Origin: a virus
Reading direction: 5' to 3' (one strand)
Virus record (IMG/VR): IMGVR_UViG_3300025728_000009
Span: 27,286 to 91,285 of that record
DNA length: 64,000 nucleotides
Below are positions 12,027-59,160 of this stretch, piece after piece. The notes beneath the pieces were generated by a model. The model had not been told where the DNA came from, ran no database searches, and worked only from the letters and a program-made list of their open reading frames with translations. The translations under genes and the position numbers were made by a program. Numbering within the stretch: the first letter of the stretch is position 1; each line of letters starts with the position of its first letter.

Positions 12027-12668
12027 ATGGCTGAAGATTTAAGCGGAAGAAAATATAATCGTTGGACTATAATTAGCCTTGCAGAGCGGAAAGGAAATCG
12101 GGCATATTGGAATTGTATATGTGATTGTGGGAAAGAAAAAGTAGTCCGTGGGGATCAAATCAAAGATGGTCGCTCACAGTCTTGTGGTTGCCTCAGAGCT
12201 GAACGCTCCTACAGGACACATGGAATGTGGAAGAGTAAGATTTACAGGGTTTGGGGCTCAATGGTTTCAAGAACTACAAATCCAAACGATCCAGCGTGGC
12301 CCTACTACGGTGGAATTGGTTGTGGATTAGACCAAGAGGAATGGAAGCAATTTGAAAATTTCTACAGGGATATGGGAGAAAGCTATAAAGAAGGGTTGAC
12401 TTTAGAACGAGAAGATCCTAAACTTGGTTACTCAAAAGAGAACTGTGTTTGGGAAACATGGAAAGTTCAAAGTTTCAACAAGAAAATGGATAAACGTAAT
12501 AAATCTGGACGTACTGGTGTTGTGCTTATTGAGGCTACTGGTAAATGGAAAGCACGTATAGGTTTTGAAGGTAAAGACATCAATTTAGGTTACTATGCAA
12601 CCTTCGAAGAGGCTTGTGCTGCAAGAGCCGAAGGTGAGCTTAAATATTTTGGAAGAACAAAGGAGTAA
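12027..12668 (+). CDS. free-standing HNH-family homing endonuclease with AP2-like C-terminus
   Basis: WNCICDCG...SCGC; YYGG.G; TLERED...YSKENCVW; SGRTGV...W.A.I...LG.Y.TFEEA..AR. Confidence 0.85.
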   Translation: MAEDLSGRKYNRWTIISLAERKGNRAYWNCICDCGKEKVVRGDQIKDGRSQSCGCLRAERSYRTHGMWKSKIYRVWGSMVSRTTNPNDPAWPYYGGIGCGLDQEEWKQFENFYRDMGESYKEGLTLEREDPKLGYSKENCVWETWKVQSFNKKMDKRNKSGRTGVVLIEATGKWKARIGFEGKDINLGYYATFEEACAARAEGELKYFGRTKE

Positions 12669-25187: not shown

Positions 25188-27356
25188 TTGAAAGTAACAA
25201 AACGAACTGGGGTGTCGGAAGTTTTTGAAGTAGAGAAGATTAAGAAAGTTGTTCATTGGGCGTGTGAGGGTTTGGAGGTCAATCCTCTGGCCCTTGAATC
25301 TAAGTTTGATGAGTTCCTTTTTGATGGAATTAGCTCTAAACAACTTCAAGCCAATATTATTGACAATGCTAAGACTCTAGCAACTCCACAAGAACCTGAC
25401 TGGGTATTTGTTGCTGGTCGTCTTGAGACTATGAATCGTTGGGCTGAAACACGGACTTATGAAATCCCGTTCCTTGAGTTCGTGAAAGAACAAGAAGTGC
25501 TTGGTTTCTGGACTCATGAAATGTTCAAACAATATTCTGATGAGGACATTGAAGAGCTTGGTGAGTACATTGTACAAGAGCGTGACCTTGACCATTCAAT
25601 TGCATCTGTTCTGACAGCGAAGAGTAAATATCTTCTACCTAATGAATGTATCCAACACATGTTCATGGGTAACGCAATGATTATTGCTGGGCCTGAAGAA
25701 CAAGATAAAGTTGGTTTTGCTAAGAAAGTATATGATGCATTGAGCGAACGTAAGATCAGCCTTGCAACCCCTTGGCTTAGTAACCTTCGTAACGCTGGTA
25801 ATATTAGTAGCTGCTTCATTATTTCGGTTGATGATAATATCCATTCGATTTATGACAACCTGAAGAATGCGGCTCTGGTAAGTAAGAATGGTGGTGGACT
25901 AGGTGTGGACCTTGCTCGTGTTCGTTGCCGTGGTAGTAAGTTGATGGGGCAAGAGGGTGGAAGTGGTGGTATTATTGGATGGGTAAAACTGTTTAACGAT
26001 ACAGCAGTCAGTGTGAATCAGGGTGGTAAACGAGCTGGCGCTTTCACCGTAGCTGTGCCTATTTGGCACGGGGATGTGGATGTCTACTTGGATGTACAGA
26101 CTGAAGCTGGTGATCAACGCCTTAAAGCCCATGACATCAAAACTCAAGTTGGTATCTATGACTTGTTCATGGAAACAAAGAATGATTCAACTAAAGAGTG
26201 GTATACATTCTGCCCTTATGAAGTAGAAGAGAAACTCGGTATTCAGTTGTTCTCTGTGTTTGGTGAAGAGTTTAATCAAGCTTATAACACTTGTGTACTT
26301 GCAGCAGATCAAGGGAAGCTCAAGACGGTTCGTAAACACAATGCTAAAGAACTGTGGAAGAAAGTGTTGCGTGTTCAGTTTGAAACAGGGATGCCTTATG
26401 TTGCTTTCTTAGATGAGATCAACAAGCATAATCCAAACAAACATATTGGCAACATCCCTTGTGTAAACCTTTGCACTGAATCGTTTAGTGTTGTGATTCC
26501 AGACAAACTTAGCCATACATGCAACTTGGCAAGTTTGGTCGTTGGTCGTATTACTCTGGAGCAACTGGTAGAGTCTGCAGCACTGGCAACACGGATTCTG
26601 GATAATGGTATTGCGCTGACTAAGGCACCAACGAAAGAGAGTGAAGATCATAATAACCTTCTTCGCACAATTGGTGTTGGGATTCAGGGATATGCTGACC
26701 TAATTGCTCGGGAAAATAAGAGCTTTCTAGACGTTGAGTTCGCAAGCTTGGTGGCAGAGTCAATTGAGTACGGATGCGTCTCTGAGAGTGTAAAACTCGC
26801 TAAAGAACGTGGTCCTTATCCGGCTTTTGAAGGTAGCGAGTGGAGTAATGGTAATCGAGTATCTACTTTCATCAGTAATGCAAGTGGTCGTTACGATTGG
26901 GTAGAACAACAGAACCAGATTGATTTGTTTGGTATTCGGAATAGTCAACTAACTAGCCCAGCACCGAACACAAGCACTTCAATTTTCATGGATGCTGCTG
27001 CTAGTATGATGCCTGTGTACAGTGCCTTCTTTTATGAAGATAACCGTGACGGTTTGAATCCAGTTACATCAATGTACTTGAAAGAGAATCCACTTAGCTA
27101 CGCTCGTGATATTACTAAATTCAAACCTTGGGATTTGACGAAAACAGTTGGTGCAATGCAGAAATGGATTGACACAGGAATCTCAGCAGAGTATGTGATG
27201 GATAAAAACCAAACAGGCTTCAGTGCTAAATGGTTGTGGGATACTCATGAAAGTGCTTGGACCAACAAGAATAAAGCTGTATACTACATCCGCACCGTGA
27301 AGCAAGGTGAACGATTAATTAAAGATGCAGTGGACTGTGTAGGCTGCGCTGGGTGA
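25188..27356 (+). CDS. nrdA: class I ribonucleotide reductase alpha subunit with ATP cone
   Basis: VTKRTG..E ATP cone; SSCF, NLCTE, CNLAS, APNTSTS, YYIR, C-terminal CVGC. Confidence 0.96.
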   Translation: MKVTKRTGVSEVFEVEKIKKVVHWACEGLEVNPLALESKFDEFLFDGISSKQLQANIIDNAKTLATPQEPDWVFVAGRLETMNRWAETRTYEIPFLEFVKEQEVLGFWTHEMFKQYSDEDIEELGEYIVQERDLDHSIASVLTAKSKYLLPNECIQHMFMGNAMIIAGPEEQDKVGFAKKVYDALSERKISLATPWLSNLRNAGNISSCFIISVDDNIHSIYDNLKNAALVSKNGGGLGVDLARVRCRGSKLMGQEGGSGGIIGWVKLFNDTAVSVNQGGKRAGAFTVAVPIWHGDVDVYLDVQTEAGDQRLKAHDIKTQVGIYDLFMETKNDSTKEWYTFCPYEVEEKLGIQLFSVFGEEFNQAYNTCVLAADQGKLKTVRKHNAKELWKKVLRVQFETGMPYVAFLDEINKHNPNKHIGNIPCVNLCTESFSVVIPDKLSHTCNLASLVVGRITLEQLVESAALATRILDNGIALTKAPTKESEDHNNLLRTIGVGIQGYADLIARENKSFLDVEFASLVAESIEYGCVSESVKLAKERGPYPAFEGSEWSNGNRVSTFISNASGRYDWVEQQNQIDLFGIRNSQLTSPAPNTSTSIFMDAAASMMPVYSAFFYEDNRDGLNPVTSMYLKENPLSYARDITKFKPWDLTKTVGAMQKWIDTGISAEYVMDKNQTGFSAKWLWDTHESAWTNKNKAVYYIRTVKQGERLIKDAVDCVGCAG

Positions 27357-55043: not shown

Positions 55044-56528
55044 TTATGAGTTTTCAGTGTTCCCAACAGAAGCATCATCGCCTCCGTTTGGACTAGTTGA
55101 AGTTCCTTCACCTGCTGTTGCCATACCTTCACCTGCACCAGAAGAGTAAGTTGTAAGTTGTTCCCTCACATCTTCAATATTTTCAGTGCCGTAGAACGGA
55201 CAAGGCATACCAGCTTGATCAGCAATCCAGTTGATCGTATCAGCGTCTTGCGACATAAGGCCAACAGAAGCAACTCGCTGAATGAACTTGGACAATACAT
55301 CGAGGTCTTGCTGTGCCAGCTTACCGAAGTCGAAATAAGGTGTTACTGTGGTATCCCAACCATTCAGAGCGAACAACTGAGGAATGAGGTCATGGTTAAG
55401 TTGATCCCGAATCTCAATCAGCTTGGCTTCAATTGCCATCTCAGCTACAGATACTTTACTTTCTGCAAGCGAGAACGAGCCAGAACCGTTATTACCAAGG
55501 CTAAGAAAATCAGCAAACAAACATGTCAAGATTTCTTGTGCGTAGCGAGAGATAATCGCACTTGTATCAAAGGCTTTCTGTCCAGTAACAGATACAATCT
55601 CAAACGAAAACTCTTTGTTGCCGTCAGAATTCTGTACCATTGGTAGAATAAAGCCCGACTGCTCAGCTACAGCAGCATTACGCATCATCTTCTTATAATA
55701 CTCGTAAACAGCCTTATCTTCTGGAGAAGCATTAGGATCCATATAACGAGGAGGAAGATAAAGAACTTTGAAGCCTTGCATATCTTGGGATACACCGATT
55801 GCCTCTGATTCCTCAAAAGCTTTCTTGTACTTCCAAGACTCCCAAGCACCTACAAGTGGACTTTGCCCATTTGGGTCATCTTTAACGCTACCGTTACGAA
55901 AGAGTAGGAACTTTTTACGTGGGATTTTAACTTTATCCCCGTAGATACTGTCTACACCGTCGTAAGTGAACTGGTTCAACCCCGTAGGTTTAATAATCTG
56001 TTGCCATACACCAGAAAGGTCACGACCTTCGTTTTCCCACTCCCAGCCTATAATAGAGTCTTGTGCTCGCTGGGGGAGTTTCTTAAGCCCAATCAAACCA
56101 TCGTCATATTTAGATCCGTTGGACTTTTGGCGTCTGCGGTAAACCTTTTCTTGGACATCAAAACCATAACGATTAAAGCTAACAACTTCTTTGATGAATT
56201 GATTCCACGAGTGGTCCATATCATCTTTGCACTGGGAGACAAATGTTGCTTTTGCTTTAAGCTCTTCTTCATAACCTTCAGGAATTTTCACAGTCCAAGG
56301 TACACGAGCAATCATCATTTCAACTAAGTTCAATGCAGGAGCAATTGTACCGTCTTTTGACATCTTCTTGAAAGTGTTGATTGCCCAAGGCCAGCGAAGC
56401 TCGAAAGCGCATTCATCGAATACTTGACCACCCGAAACCTTAAGTGAATTGAAGCCTGTCTCTCCCAACTTCAATCTAATGGGTGTATTTTCACCCGTAC
56501 TAAGGGTTTCTGTATTTTCTTCAGCCAT
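55044..56528 (-). CDS. portal protein (DUF935-like)
   Basis: YGF...EKVY; IP..KF.LF; P.G.SPL; GSFSLAE; LIPQLF.LNG; follows terL. Confidence 0.9.
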   Translation of the reverse strand: MAEENTETLSTGENTPIRLKLGETGFNSLKVSGGQVFDECAFELRWPWAINTFKKMSKDGTIAPALNLVEMMIARVPWTVKIPEGYEEELKAKATFVSQCKDDMDHSWNQFIKEVVSFNRYGFDVQEKVYRRRQKSNGSKYDDGLIGLKKLPQRAQDSIIGWEWENEGRDLSGVWQQIIKPTGLNQFTYDGVDSIYGDKVKIPRKKFLLFRNGSVKDDPNGQSPLVGAWESWKYKKAFEESEAIGVSQDMQGFKVLYLPPRYMDPNASPEDKAVYEYYKKMMRNAAVAEQSGFILPMVQNSDGNKEFSFEIVSVTGQKAFDTSAIISRYAQEILTCLFADFLSLGNNGSGSFSLAESKVSVAEMAIEAKLIEIRDQLNHDLIPQLFALNGWDTTVTPYFDFGKLAQQDLDVLSKFIQRVASVGLMSQDADTINWIADQAGMPCPFYGTENIEDVREQLTTYSSGAGEGMATAGEGTSTSPNGGDDASVGNTENS

Positions 56529-56537
56529 GAAGGCTCC

Positions 56538-58465
56538 TTAGCGATTAAATGGATTTTTAGTTGAGAGGTCAGCAGTAACTAGACCACCAAGGAAGTTTCC
56601 GATATGTATCTTTTGAGCCAACGTAATGAAAGCATCACTAGTTGCGTCAACTTGCATTATCTTAAATAAGATTCGTTAATTCTTATTCAGCCTCTCGGCT
56701 GCTATACATCGCTGTATAGAGGAGACTATCTCTTCAAACAAAATTGTTTGCCCACTGCTTCGCTTCACTTGAAGCTACTCTACTCACTTCCATCTTACAG
56801 ATGTGTTTTCGATAGTCGTTACACGTTCTCATTTCTGAGCTTCGCTCGGTATTGTCTCAAAGAGAGGTTCACCGAATTCAATGGGTTTATAGACGACCAA
56901 TATTTAAAAAATCGTCTTTAATATTTCGACTTCCGTCAAAGCCTTCCAGTTCAAAAAAGTAAGCTTCGTTCCAAGGGCCTTCAACATAGTCTACAAGTCC
57001 GGCTTCAGCAGCAGATGCAAAAGGCTGGAATCTTGTTACTTTAGATTTATTTGAGGGACGCATTCTGGAAGAGAAGCCTTCCTCAATCAATTCTCTAATC
57101 ATCATTTGACCAGCAGCTTTACCAGCTTGACCGGGCTCTTGAGGCAGAATGATTTGAGTGTTTTCAGGATCATCTTTTGCTGTTTGTATAATCCTCTGCA
57201 TCACCTCACCGAAGCGTGCTCGGAATCTAACAGAGTCACAAACTATGTACCTGCCTTGTTTTGTCTTGCCAATCAGTACACCAGCCGTCCAGTCAGGATT
57301 AGGCAGGCTATCTGATGGCAATGAGCCAGCTATATCCCAAGCCCTGCAATATGAAACAATCTGCTGTTCATGTTCTCTAACTGGCGTCACGAACTCACGT
57401 TTAAAGAAGCCGCTGGAAGATTCTCGCACAAACCAGTTACCTTCCAAGAGCCGCTGACGCTCGACTCCACGAAGTCCTTTCAGCCAACTAACATATTTTG
57501 GGTTAACTTCTTGAACAATTTTGTTATCGTAAACGTTGGCACTAATAAAGGTAAAAGACAGAGCATCTTTTTCTTCAATACCGTACTCTTCCCAAAGCTG
57601 TTGTTTTGTATCTCCCCAAACAAAGTCACCATCCATAAAGGAAAAGTAACGAATAATTCCGTCTTTATCTCTATCTGGTGTTCCGTCTGCTTTCAAATAA
57701 GGCTCAACCCACTTTCGTAGCCCATGATCGGCTGATGGGTTGCATGTGATTTTTAGGTGGGGTTTTACTGAAGGACAAGATGGGTTACGCATACGAGACA
57801 TGATATATTGAATCATGTACATCGTAAATTGAGTTCCCTCATCTATATAGAAAAGATTTGCTTCACTACCTTGCCAGTTTACATCGGCTTGGTCGTTCTC
57901 AAAGTGCTTAAGATAAATCTCAGCGCCTGATTTATGAAAAACAAACTTACCATCTTTAGCTCGCCAAGTATATTCATCTGAATTATAAGCTTGGTTAAAA
58001 ATCCTTCGACACTTCGTCAACAACCCACCGGGACCATTTAGTTGGGGAGTTGTTCGACGAGTCATTACGCCAATAAAATTTGGAATGTCTGTATACTTCA
58101 GAAAATCAATTACTCCGATTTCTGACTTACCAGAACCTGCTGCCATTAAGTTATAGAGTTCGTTACACTCTCTTCGCTCTCGCAAAGGATCGGACTATAT
58201 CTTCTACTTTCGTAGCCCCCCGTTTCGATTGCACTTGCAACCTACTCGCCTACATTCATCAGCGTTAGTCTCTACACGTTACTTATAAATAAGTCTTCGC
58301 TCGGTATTGCCCACGTCTTTACGTTTGGGTTTCACCGAATTAGAGGGGTTTTAATTGGAGGCGCTAAAGTTCACCACCAAACAGCGTCACGTCAGCTTCT
58401 GACACACAGTACATATGCTGACGTTTTCCGCAGGGTCCGGGTAGCACCTTTTCAGGTTCACTCAT
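56538..58465 (-). CDS. terL: terminase large subunit, 3 exons: 58465-58373, 58143-56911, 56654-56538 (480 aa spliced)
   Basis: splicing restores Walker A FGG|AAGSGKS and nuclease KDD|QVDATSDAF; Walker B FYIDEG; TCNP; RAWD.A. Confidence 0.93.
56655..56910 (-). mobile_element. group I intron 2 in terL (256 nt, no ORF)
   Basis: exon ends U, intron ends G; P1 AGACGAU/GUCGUCU with U-G; P10 UUG/CAA; P7 GACUA/UAGUC in AAGAGAUAGUC. Confidence 0.92.
58144..58372 (-). mobile_element. group I intron 1 in terL (229 nt, no ORF)
   Basis: exon ends U, intron ends G; P1 UUGGUGGU/GCCUCCAA with U-G; P7 GACUA and AAGAUAUAGUCC. Confidence 0.92.
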
Positions 58466-59160
58466 TCTTTATTCCGTCCGAAATATTTAATCTCAGCGGC
58501 TTCACGAGCTTTAACTGCTTCTTCAAAAGTATCAAACCTTCCAAGACCAATTACTTCGCCCATGTATCCGATTTGAGAAGTCCATTTACCACGTTCTTCA
58601 CTCCAACCAACTCCAGTTCTACCTGATGTATTGTGGGATTTGATTCGTGTGTTATATGACTGGTTACTCTTAGTGTCCCACTTGCAATTCTCTGGAGAAT
58701 AGTCTTCGTTAACTTCAATTCGTTCAAGAGTAAGACCGTTACATGGTCCCATATCTTCGTAGAAGTTAATAAAGCCTTGAGGGGCAGCTTCTAACCAACG
58801 CTCACAAATACCAATTCCTCGACCACCGTAGTAATCAAATCCTGTATCGTTTGGGTTGGTACATCTGTTTAACATTTCTCGGTGTGACCTGTATTCAGGA
58901 CTTTTCACCATCCCATGCTTTGTAATTTTATCTTCAAGGTAGCAACCACAAGATAATGTGTGATTCCTAAGAAGATTACTTTGCTGTACTATAAGAGTAT
59001 TACCGCACTCACAAGCACAGAGCCACAAACCCTTACGTTGGCCAGATGGCTGAACTTTCCAACCATCAAAGTCTAGTACGGTAAGTCTCTCAAACACTTG
59101 ACCAGTCAAATCTTTTCTTGGTCTTTCCAGCAAAGGTCTTACGTTAACTACTTCATTCAT
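58462..59160 (-). CDS. free-standing HNH-family homing endonuclease with AP2-like C-terminus
   Basis: WLCACECG...SCGC; YYGGRGI.IC.RW; TLERI.VN.DYSPENCKW; SGRTGV; stop overlaps terL ATG. Confidence 0.88.
   Translation of the reverse strand: MNEVVNVRPLLERPRKDLTGQVFERLTVLDFDGWKVQPSGQRKGLWLCACECGNTLIVQQSNLLRNHTLSCGCYLEDKITKHGMVKSPEYRSHREMLNRCTNPNDTGFDYYGGRGIGICERWLEAAPQGFINFYEDMGPCNGLTLERIEVNEDYSPENCKWDTKSNQSYNTRIKSHNTSGRTGVGWSEERGKWTSQIGYMGEVIGLGRFDTFEEAVKAREAAEIKYFGRNKE

Follow-up and report, generated by a model that had tools for sequence, protein, structure and literature searches.

Two group I introns without open reading frames at the Walker A and nuclease motifs of a phage terL gene, very probably of separate origin

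The gene for the large terminase subunit (terL, encoding TerL) of an uncultured phage, represented by IMG/VR virus record IMGVR_UViG_3300025728_000009 as a complete viral genome of 91,285 bp, raises the question of how two small introns came to lie at the codons of both catalytic centres of one protein, and whether these introns are copies of one element or were acquired separately. We analysed a stretch of 64,000 nucleotides of this genome (record positions 27,286 to 91,285, referred to as the window), in which terL is located on the minus strand at 56538-58465. An earlier note on this DNA had proposed that terL is split by two "sister" group I introns, one ribozyme lineage having been retargeted twice. 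Our analysis agrees with that note on the presence and location of the introns and departs from it on their origin: terL very probably holds two independently acquired introns that lack an open reading frame (ORF), may resemble subgroup IA, and come from site-specific lineages that circulate horizontally.

Gene structure and group I identity of the introns

The terL gene was resolved into three exons and two introns, all on the minus strand (in the motifs below, a slash marks an insertion point). Exon 1 (58465-58373) consists of 31 codons, M1 to G31, and ends in TTT GGT GGT, which encodes the LFGG sequence with the first Walker A glycines; its assignment is based on an N-terminus conserved among relatives and on gap-free alignment with the TerL proteins of the Pseudomonas phages PPSC2 and PAK_P3. 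It is followed by intron 1 (58372-58144), an ORF-less group I intron of 229 nt at the Walker A site, with its terminal G at 58144. Exon 2 (58143-56911; 411 codons, A32 to D442) starts with GCA GCA GGT TCT GGT AAG TCA and ends with AAA GAC GAT. It covers the remainder of Walker A (AAGSGKS), the Walker B motif, and, as far as KDD, the greater part of the RNase H-like nuclease domain, and it matches the Pfam families Terminase_6N (E 1e-10) and Terminase_6C (E 4e-17). Intron 2 (56910-56655), also an ORF-less group I intron, is 256 nt long, lies at the nuclease site DD/QVDA, and has its terminal G at 56655. Exon 3 (56654-56538; 38 codons plus the stop, Q443 to R480) starts with CAA GTT GAC GCA, encoding QVDATSDAF; the sequence QVDATSDA is identical in the uninterrupted TerL proteins of PPSC2 and PAK_P3, and tblastn linked the exon to 47 Pseudomonas phage TerL C-termini.

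Both introns lie between codons (phase 0), and the predicted spliced TerL is 480 aa long, with the features of the TerL family: an ATPase with a Walker A motif of the form GxxxxGK[ST] and an RNase H-like nuclease domain (Terminase_6N and Terminase_6C; T4-type). Production of full-length TerL would require the excision of both introns. Comparison of the ORF list with the exon structure showed that a 432-aa ORF on the minus strand (56887-58185) has a TTG start within intron 1 and a stop within intron 2. Because both its start and its stop fall inside introns, this ORF is an artefact, and the earlier note was correct in calling it a false product of ORF callers.

It was found that the spliced TerL aligns without gaps over both junctions to the uninterrupted TerL proteins of PPSC2 and PAK_P3. 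At junction 1, LFGG/AAGSGKS corresponds to VFGGAAGAGKS (FGGAAGAGKS for the motif itself), and at junction 2, NIKDD/QVDATSDAF corresponds to NIKDDQVDATSDAF. Excision therefore restores FGGAAGSGKS and KDDQVDATSDAF, gap-free against uninterrupted homologs. The intron boundaries are fixed by this alignment together with the contiguous terL alleles of eight relatives, and the predicted junctions in the DNA are GGTGGT/GCAGCA and GACGAT/CAAGTT.

The assignment of Walker A is direct, as the spliced sequence reads G31-AAGS-G36-K37-S38. For the nuclease motif, the comparison was with T4 gp17, in which the catalytic triad is D401, E458, and D542 (PMC3074133). In the translation of T4 gene 17, D542 is the second D of YHDDLVMSL, and KDD/QVDA shares the pattern [HK]DD-x-V with this DD motif (D541/D542). 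The DD motif is located 143 residues into the Terminase_6C domain in both T4 and an uninterrupted relative (L009), and in a 7-sequence alignment D447, D448, and D451 are invariant. Intron 2 probably follows directly the codon of the third catalytic Asp, the equivalent of D542 of T4 gp17. The location of the introns at Walker A and the nuclease motif, as the earlier note had claimed, is thus confirmed, directly for the former and by pattern and Terminase_6C offset for the latter.

The group I identity of the introns was evaluated with the Rfam covariance model RF00028 (Intron_gpI), which has a gathering score of 50 bits. Both introns exceeded it, intron 1 with 67.0 bits (E 8e-15) and intron 2 with 65.7 bits (E 2e-14), and no further group I match was found in the window or in the whole 91-kb genome. 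In the P1 helix of intron 1, the exon sequence GGUGGU pairs with the guide GCCUCC with one internal U-U mismatch, and in that of intron 2, GACGAU pairs with GUCGUC at 6 of 6 positions; in both there is a U-G pair at the 5′ splice site. Minimum free energy (MFE) folds of both introns recover the P1 stems plus P3-P6, P8, and P9, with z = -3.9 for the fold of intron 2. The model-aligned P7, the guanosine-binding helix, pairs GACUA with UAGUC in both introns, and both 3′ ends are UAAUG, with the terminal G. The strings AAUUCGGUGAA, CAAUACCGAGCGAAG, and AACGUGUA, which the earlier note had listed with the UAAUG end as shared, are indeed present in both. These results bear out its description of two genuine group I introns with different guides, U-G pairs in P1, a terminal G, and a common P7.

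Between P7 and P3′, both introns have an insertion of 45-70 nt that forms two hairpins in the MFE structures; subgroup IA would be expected to have such hairpins, and by this feature both introns may be IA-like (IA2-like). The phage introns of T4 td, nrdB, and sunY, of Twort orf142, and of the SPO1 DNA polymerase gene are assigned to class IA2. They resemble the introns described here in being compact, in interrupting conserved genes, in having a U-G pair in P1, and apparently in having extra P7-P3′ hairpins; they differ in that they interrupt other host genes and that those of T4 td and sunY have endonuclease ORFs.

The ORF list contained no sense-strand ORF of at least 33 aa inside either intron. 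The earlier statement that neither intron encodes a nuclease is therefore true, but it leaves out an HNH endonuclease gene just upstream of intron 1 and the HNH ORFs in same-site relatives of intron 2, both described below.

Judged by their sequences, the two introns would be self-splicing elements. The pre-mRNA would be transcribed through both of them, and each ribozyme would pair its own guide with the 5′ exon (GGUGGU with GCCUCC, and GACGAU with GUCGUC), with U-G at the cleavage site, use a guanosine, and then ligate the exons. Only an mRNA that has lost both introns would encode the 480-aa TerL in which Walker A and the nuclease motif are whole.

Distribution and origin of the two introns

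The presence of the introns was compared in 10 viral contigs that represent close relatives (77-85% protein identity in exon 2). In 8 of these 10, terL is uninterrupted at both sites, and the other 2 have an ORF-less intron at DD/QVDA only. Two further relatives, L128 and L116 (IMGVR_UViG_3300048912_000031), have the Walker A intron only, and none of these 12 relatives has both introns. Intron 1 shares 96.5% identity with its counterpart at the same site in L128, although the exons of L128 are only about 72% identical at the DNA level, and about 90% with that in L116, the TerL exon 2 of which has 49% aa identity. Similarly, intron 2 shares 84% identity with its same-site counterpart in L013, the exons of which are at 66-76%. 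The introns therefore show the signs of mobile introns, namely a sporadic presence among close relatives and an identity well above that of the exons. In the same-site intron of L017, a compensatory change was found in P1, where the exon GAC is changed to GAT and the guide GUCGUC to GUCAUC. When 20 kb of the window was compared with phage records by megablast, the sole match was the intron, and so there is no close cultured relative.

The last codon of exon 1 also differs among alleles. Exon 1 ends in GGT GGT in the window (58373-58378), L128, and L116, whereas the last codon is GGC or GGG in the intron-less relatives (L009-L016). A requirement of the ribozyme for U at position -1 could account for this, as could co-conversion over a very short tract.

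A separate observation concerns the mosaic relationship of L116 to the window over 55044-58143, a region that extends through the portal gene located directly downstream of terL (55044-56528, minus strand; Pfam Portal_Mu, E 1e-22). Within terL, the DNA identity rises from about 45% over the ATPase half to about 70% over the nuclease half; it reaches 82-100% in the approximately 180 nt directly after the insertion site of intron 2 and is about 80% across the portal gene. The step in identity is at the homing site of intron 2, although L116 has no intron there.

The wider distribution was evaluated in a sample of 117 loci of the intron subfamily, 40 of which have TerL-like flanks. Of these 40, 28 lie at just three places: 15 at Walker A, 6 at the DE residues 123/126 of Walker B, and 7 at DD/QVDA. 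All 15 Walker A-site introns are ORF-less and approximately 210-237 nt long. The nuclease-site lineage includes ORF-less members of 232-257 nt and members of 767-847 nt with ORFs of 178-191 aa, such as that in the intron of Pseudomonas phage vB_PsyM_KIL1 (KIL1), which matches the HNH family phrog_2081 (E 3e-57). These site-specific lineages are shared between phages with TerL proteins that are just 30-50% identical. The third recurrent site comprises the Walker B and catalytic Glu codons (window TerL residues 123/126, in YIDEG), and the loci recorded for it are L049, L059, L074, L097, L118, and L085. Locus L027 has a Walker A intron and a second, mid-gene terL intron that is not assigned to a site.

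Introns and inteins are known to prefer conserved sites (PMC2814812, PMC5050341). Catalytic motifs are the most conserved terL DNA and hence favoured homing targets, which accounts for introns at these motifs, and such an insertion says nothing special about the phage.

The relationship between introns 1 and 2 was then considered directly. Their global identity is 61%, and the two main strings that they share co-occur exactly in more than 117 viral contigs; the shared motifs mark a large phage intron subfamily. In pairwise local alignments with 128 other introns, intron 2 ranked 114th for intron 1, and intron 1 ranked 107th for intron 2. In a tree of 36 terL introns, obtained by a quick search of 255 MAFFT columns, intron 1 fell among the Walker A introns, in a clade with support 98, and intron 2 among the nuclease-site introns, in a clade with support 99. 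The insertion-site label changes 4 times on this tree, compared to 14.8 times in shuffles, and 0 of 200 shuffles had a value as low. The approximately unbiased (AU) test rejected a clade of introns 1 and 2, with a log-likelihood (lnL) difference of 129. The site-specific clades, the AU rejection, and the absence of a relative with both introns indicate two independent invasions.

In this preferred explanation, intron 1 belongs to the lineage of uniformly ORF-less mini-introns in Walker A codons, and intron 2 to a lineage with its insertion point right behind the codon for the probable third catalytic Asp in the nuclease domain. Because some members of the latter lineage still have an HNH gene, intron 2 is most simply regarded as a form from which the endonuclease was lost or to which it was never added.

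Several points weigh against this explanation or parts of it. The tree came from a quick search with 255 columns, the RNAs are short and evolve fast, and the deep branches have weak support. The intron of L033 (IMGVR_UViG_3300023171_000062), located at the Walker A site, nests in the nuclease-site clade (support 99), which indicates that site switching occurs in the family. The equivalence to D542 is a matter of motif and profile-offset matching and not of structure: a search of solved-structure sequences with the PAK_P3 TerL and with a 7-sequence TerL profile gave no usable match, and hhalign of the TerL profile against T4 gp17 gave no meaningful alignment, the profile being too shallow. Lastly, the RF00028 alignment put P1 of intron 2 inside the exon, and the P1 used here was identified by eye and from the MFE fold. 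The Rfam placement of P1/P2 within exon 2 was dropped, as the pairing of GACGAU with GUCGUC fits the junction defined by homology. As to L033 itself, the intron lies on the minus strand near 12433-12478 of its contig, which ends just upstream, so that the 5′ exon is outside it; this intron is a possible ectopic site switch.

The upstream endonuclease gene and alternative explanations

The gene upstream of terL encodes a free-standing HNH endonuclease of 232 aa (58462-59160, minus strand) that matches phrog_374 (E 9e-76) and has an AP2-like C-terminus (weak match to Pfam AP2). Its stop codon overlaps the terL start (ATGA), and the gene ends 93 nt upstream of the intron 1 site. The gene occupies a slot flanked by terL and by a conserved gene of about 120 aa, and this slot contains an endonuclease gene in the window and in 12 of 12 relatives (L009-L018, L116, and L128), the gene differing in every relative. 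Over these 13 genomes, the slot endonucleases span at least 6 PHROG families (374, 681, 953, 655, 2081, and 99). The slot is a hot spot of endonuclease turnover at the terL start.

This arrangement raises the possibility of collaborative homing with shielding, in which the adjoining HNH endonuclease would cut intron-less terL at or near the Walker A codons, and intron 1 would be copied in by repair and, as it splits the target, would protect its own genome. The proximity of the HNH gene to the insertion site and its overlap with the terL start are consistent with this mechanism, as is the lack of an ORF in all 15 of the sampled Walker A-site introns, which would need a nuclease in trans. The GGT at the end of exon 1 in intron-bearing alleles, compared to GGC or GGG in intron-less ones, may also be counted in its favour, and the mechanism is established in other systems (PMC3984707, PMC2790892, PMC6083498). 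An endonuclease gene lies directly upstream of terL at about 12 of 16 Walker A-intron loci and at 4 of 9 distant controls, a sample too small and too non-independent for any claim.

However, intron 1 of the window and its near-identical copies in L128 and L116 adjoin endonucleases of three families (phrog_374, 655, and 99), which argues against a specific partnership. Furthermore, all 10 close relatives, which lack the Walker A intron (8 of them lack any intron), have an endonuclease in the slot, as do the 4 controls. Exons of about 72% identity beside a 96.5% identical intron show no co-conversion, which argues against simple hitch-hiking. On balance, we consider collaborative homing at this site unlikely. 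Two specific versions were rejected: a dedicated pair of this HNH gene and intron 1 was not supported by the comparison, as the endonuclease and the intron do not travel together, and the transfer of intron 1 as a passenger of long co-conversion tracts that spread from the upstream slot does not agree with the divergence of the exons next to the intron.

The ORF-less introns associated with adjacent free-standing endonucleases in other phages, namely the psbA intron with F-CphI in cyanophage S-PM2 and the nrdB intron with mobE in T4 (PMC3984707, PMC6083498, PMC2790892), resemble the arrangement described here. They differ from it in that here the family of the neighbouring endonuclease varies by phage and the endonuclease also occurs without the intron. 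A broader idea, that the Walker A mini-introns are mobilised in trans by, and are shields against, free-standing endonucleases that compete for the slot upstream of terL, is in our view similarly doubtful. If it were true, intron 1 would be no passive passenger but a participant in a multi-party arms race at the 5′ end of terL.

It is also conceivable, but in our judgement very improbable, that the introns are retained as packaging regulators, with the rate or conditions of splicing gating late TerL production. In the Bastillevirinae, some phage introns splice only in vivo, with a timing that varies over the infection cycle (PMC11878797), and here each interruption would make the unspliced product non-functional. 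Against this, 8 of the 10 close relatives manage without either intron, the intron distribution tracks horizontal transfer and not phage phylogeny, and no sensor is suggested by the sequence.

The origin given in the earlier note, a single minimal ribozyme duplicated within the phage lineage and retargeted by a change of guide, could draw on the shared strings, P7, and UAAUG end and on the guide changes known in the family (L033, and a Barba19A-type intron 6 nt downstream with the guide GGUUCC), but it has next to no probability given the 61% identity of the pair, the closer same-site relatives of each intron in other phages, the more than 117 viral contigs in which the shared motifs occur together, and the close relatives that have one intron or the other and never the pair; the ranks of 114 and 107 of 128, the site-specific clades, and the AU test lead us to reject the "sister" relationship.

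Comparison with known terL introns and significance

Two separate acquisitions from circulating lineages, the explanation we prefer, can be set beside several known systems. Group I introns in terL are well documented, and multi-intron terL genes have been published for the Bastillevirinae (PMC11878797, NAR 2025). In these Bacillus phages, for example SIOphi, terL contains two or three group I introns, many with no coding sequence inside, and splicing was demonstrated in vitro and in vivo (PMC11878797). An exon 2-skipped product has been reported for SIOphi TerL. The Bastillevirinae differ in being Gram-positive Herelleviridae with another TerL family and a mean intron length of about 800 nt, and the pair of sites at Walker A and the nuclease Asp is not described in that paper (PMC11878797).

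A close parallel for intron 2 is found in KIL1 and its relatives (Flaumdravirus; KU130126, L001), which have an intron of the same clade at the same KDD/QVDA site. The KIL1 TerL is homologous, with about 71% DNA identity over the aligned parts (22% of the query). In contrast to the window, the KIL1 intron is 767 nt long and contains a 178-aa HNH gene, and KIL1 has a second, mid-gene intron and none at Walker A. In its GenBank record (4341-5218), only the mid-gene join is annotated, TerL ends at KDD, the HNH gene is a hypothetical, and exon 3 (QVDATSDAF, from 5108) is unannotated. A search of the literature covered here for a description of the KIL1 terL introns found none. The next KIL1 coding sequence, annotated as hypothetical, the ORFs of which resemble the portal gene of the window, holds a group I intron at 5982-6297.

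Rheinheimera phage Barba19A and Vibrio phages 1.063.O and 1.193.O (L002-L004) offer a parallel to intron 1: their Walker A codons are interrupted by small ORF-less introns of the same lineage, although these are at most 75% identical to it. The Barba19A intron (L002, 2470-2712), at 75%, is below the Rfam gathering score and is apparently located two codons further downstream (FFGGGA/GGGKT), where its guide GGUUCC pairs with GGAGCU. Here an intron of the Walker A lineage seems to have been genuinely retargeted. As these introns were not recognised, the terL genes are annotated in unlinked pieces or with a late start (Barba19A 2352-2780, 1.063.O 548-905, and 1.193.O 2371-4644). In Vibrio phage 1.193.O, three introns divide terL into four exon fragments (gp119-122).

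The TerL inteins of mycobacteriophages are a parallel at another level, being selfish self-splicing elements located at Walker A and Walker B of TerL (PMC5050341). They differ in that splicing occurs at the protein level and all of them are in the ATPase domain (PMC5050341), whereas here it would occur at the RNA level, with one element in the nuclease domain.

An unrelated RNA was noted on one of the contigs with a terL intron at the DD/QVDA site (L038). On the minus strand of this 97-kb phage contig, at 7474-7855, there is a full-length match to GOLLD RNA (209 bits compared to a cut-off of 150) beside an array of about 12 tRNA genes.

Taken together, the comparative picture is an illustration of known homing biology, with no new mechanism, and its main value is in annotation. 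ORF callers yield a truncated 432-aa "TerL" for the phage of the window, and the records of KIL1, Barba19A, 1.063.O, and 1.193.O share this type of error. Because terL is widely used as a phylogenetic marker and as a predictor of packaging strategy, unrecognised introns of this kind distort such analyses.

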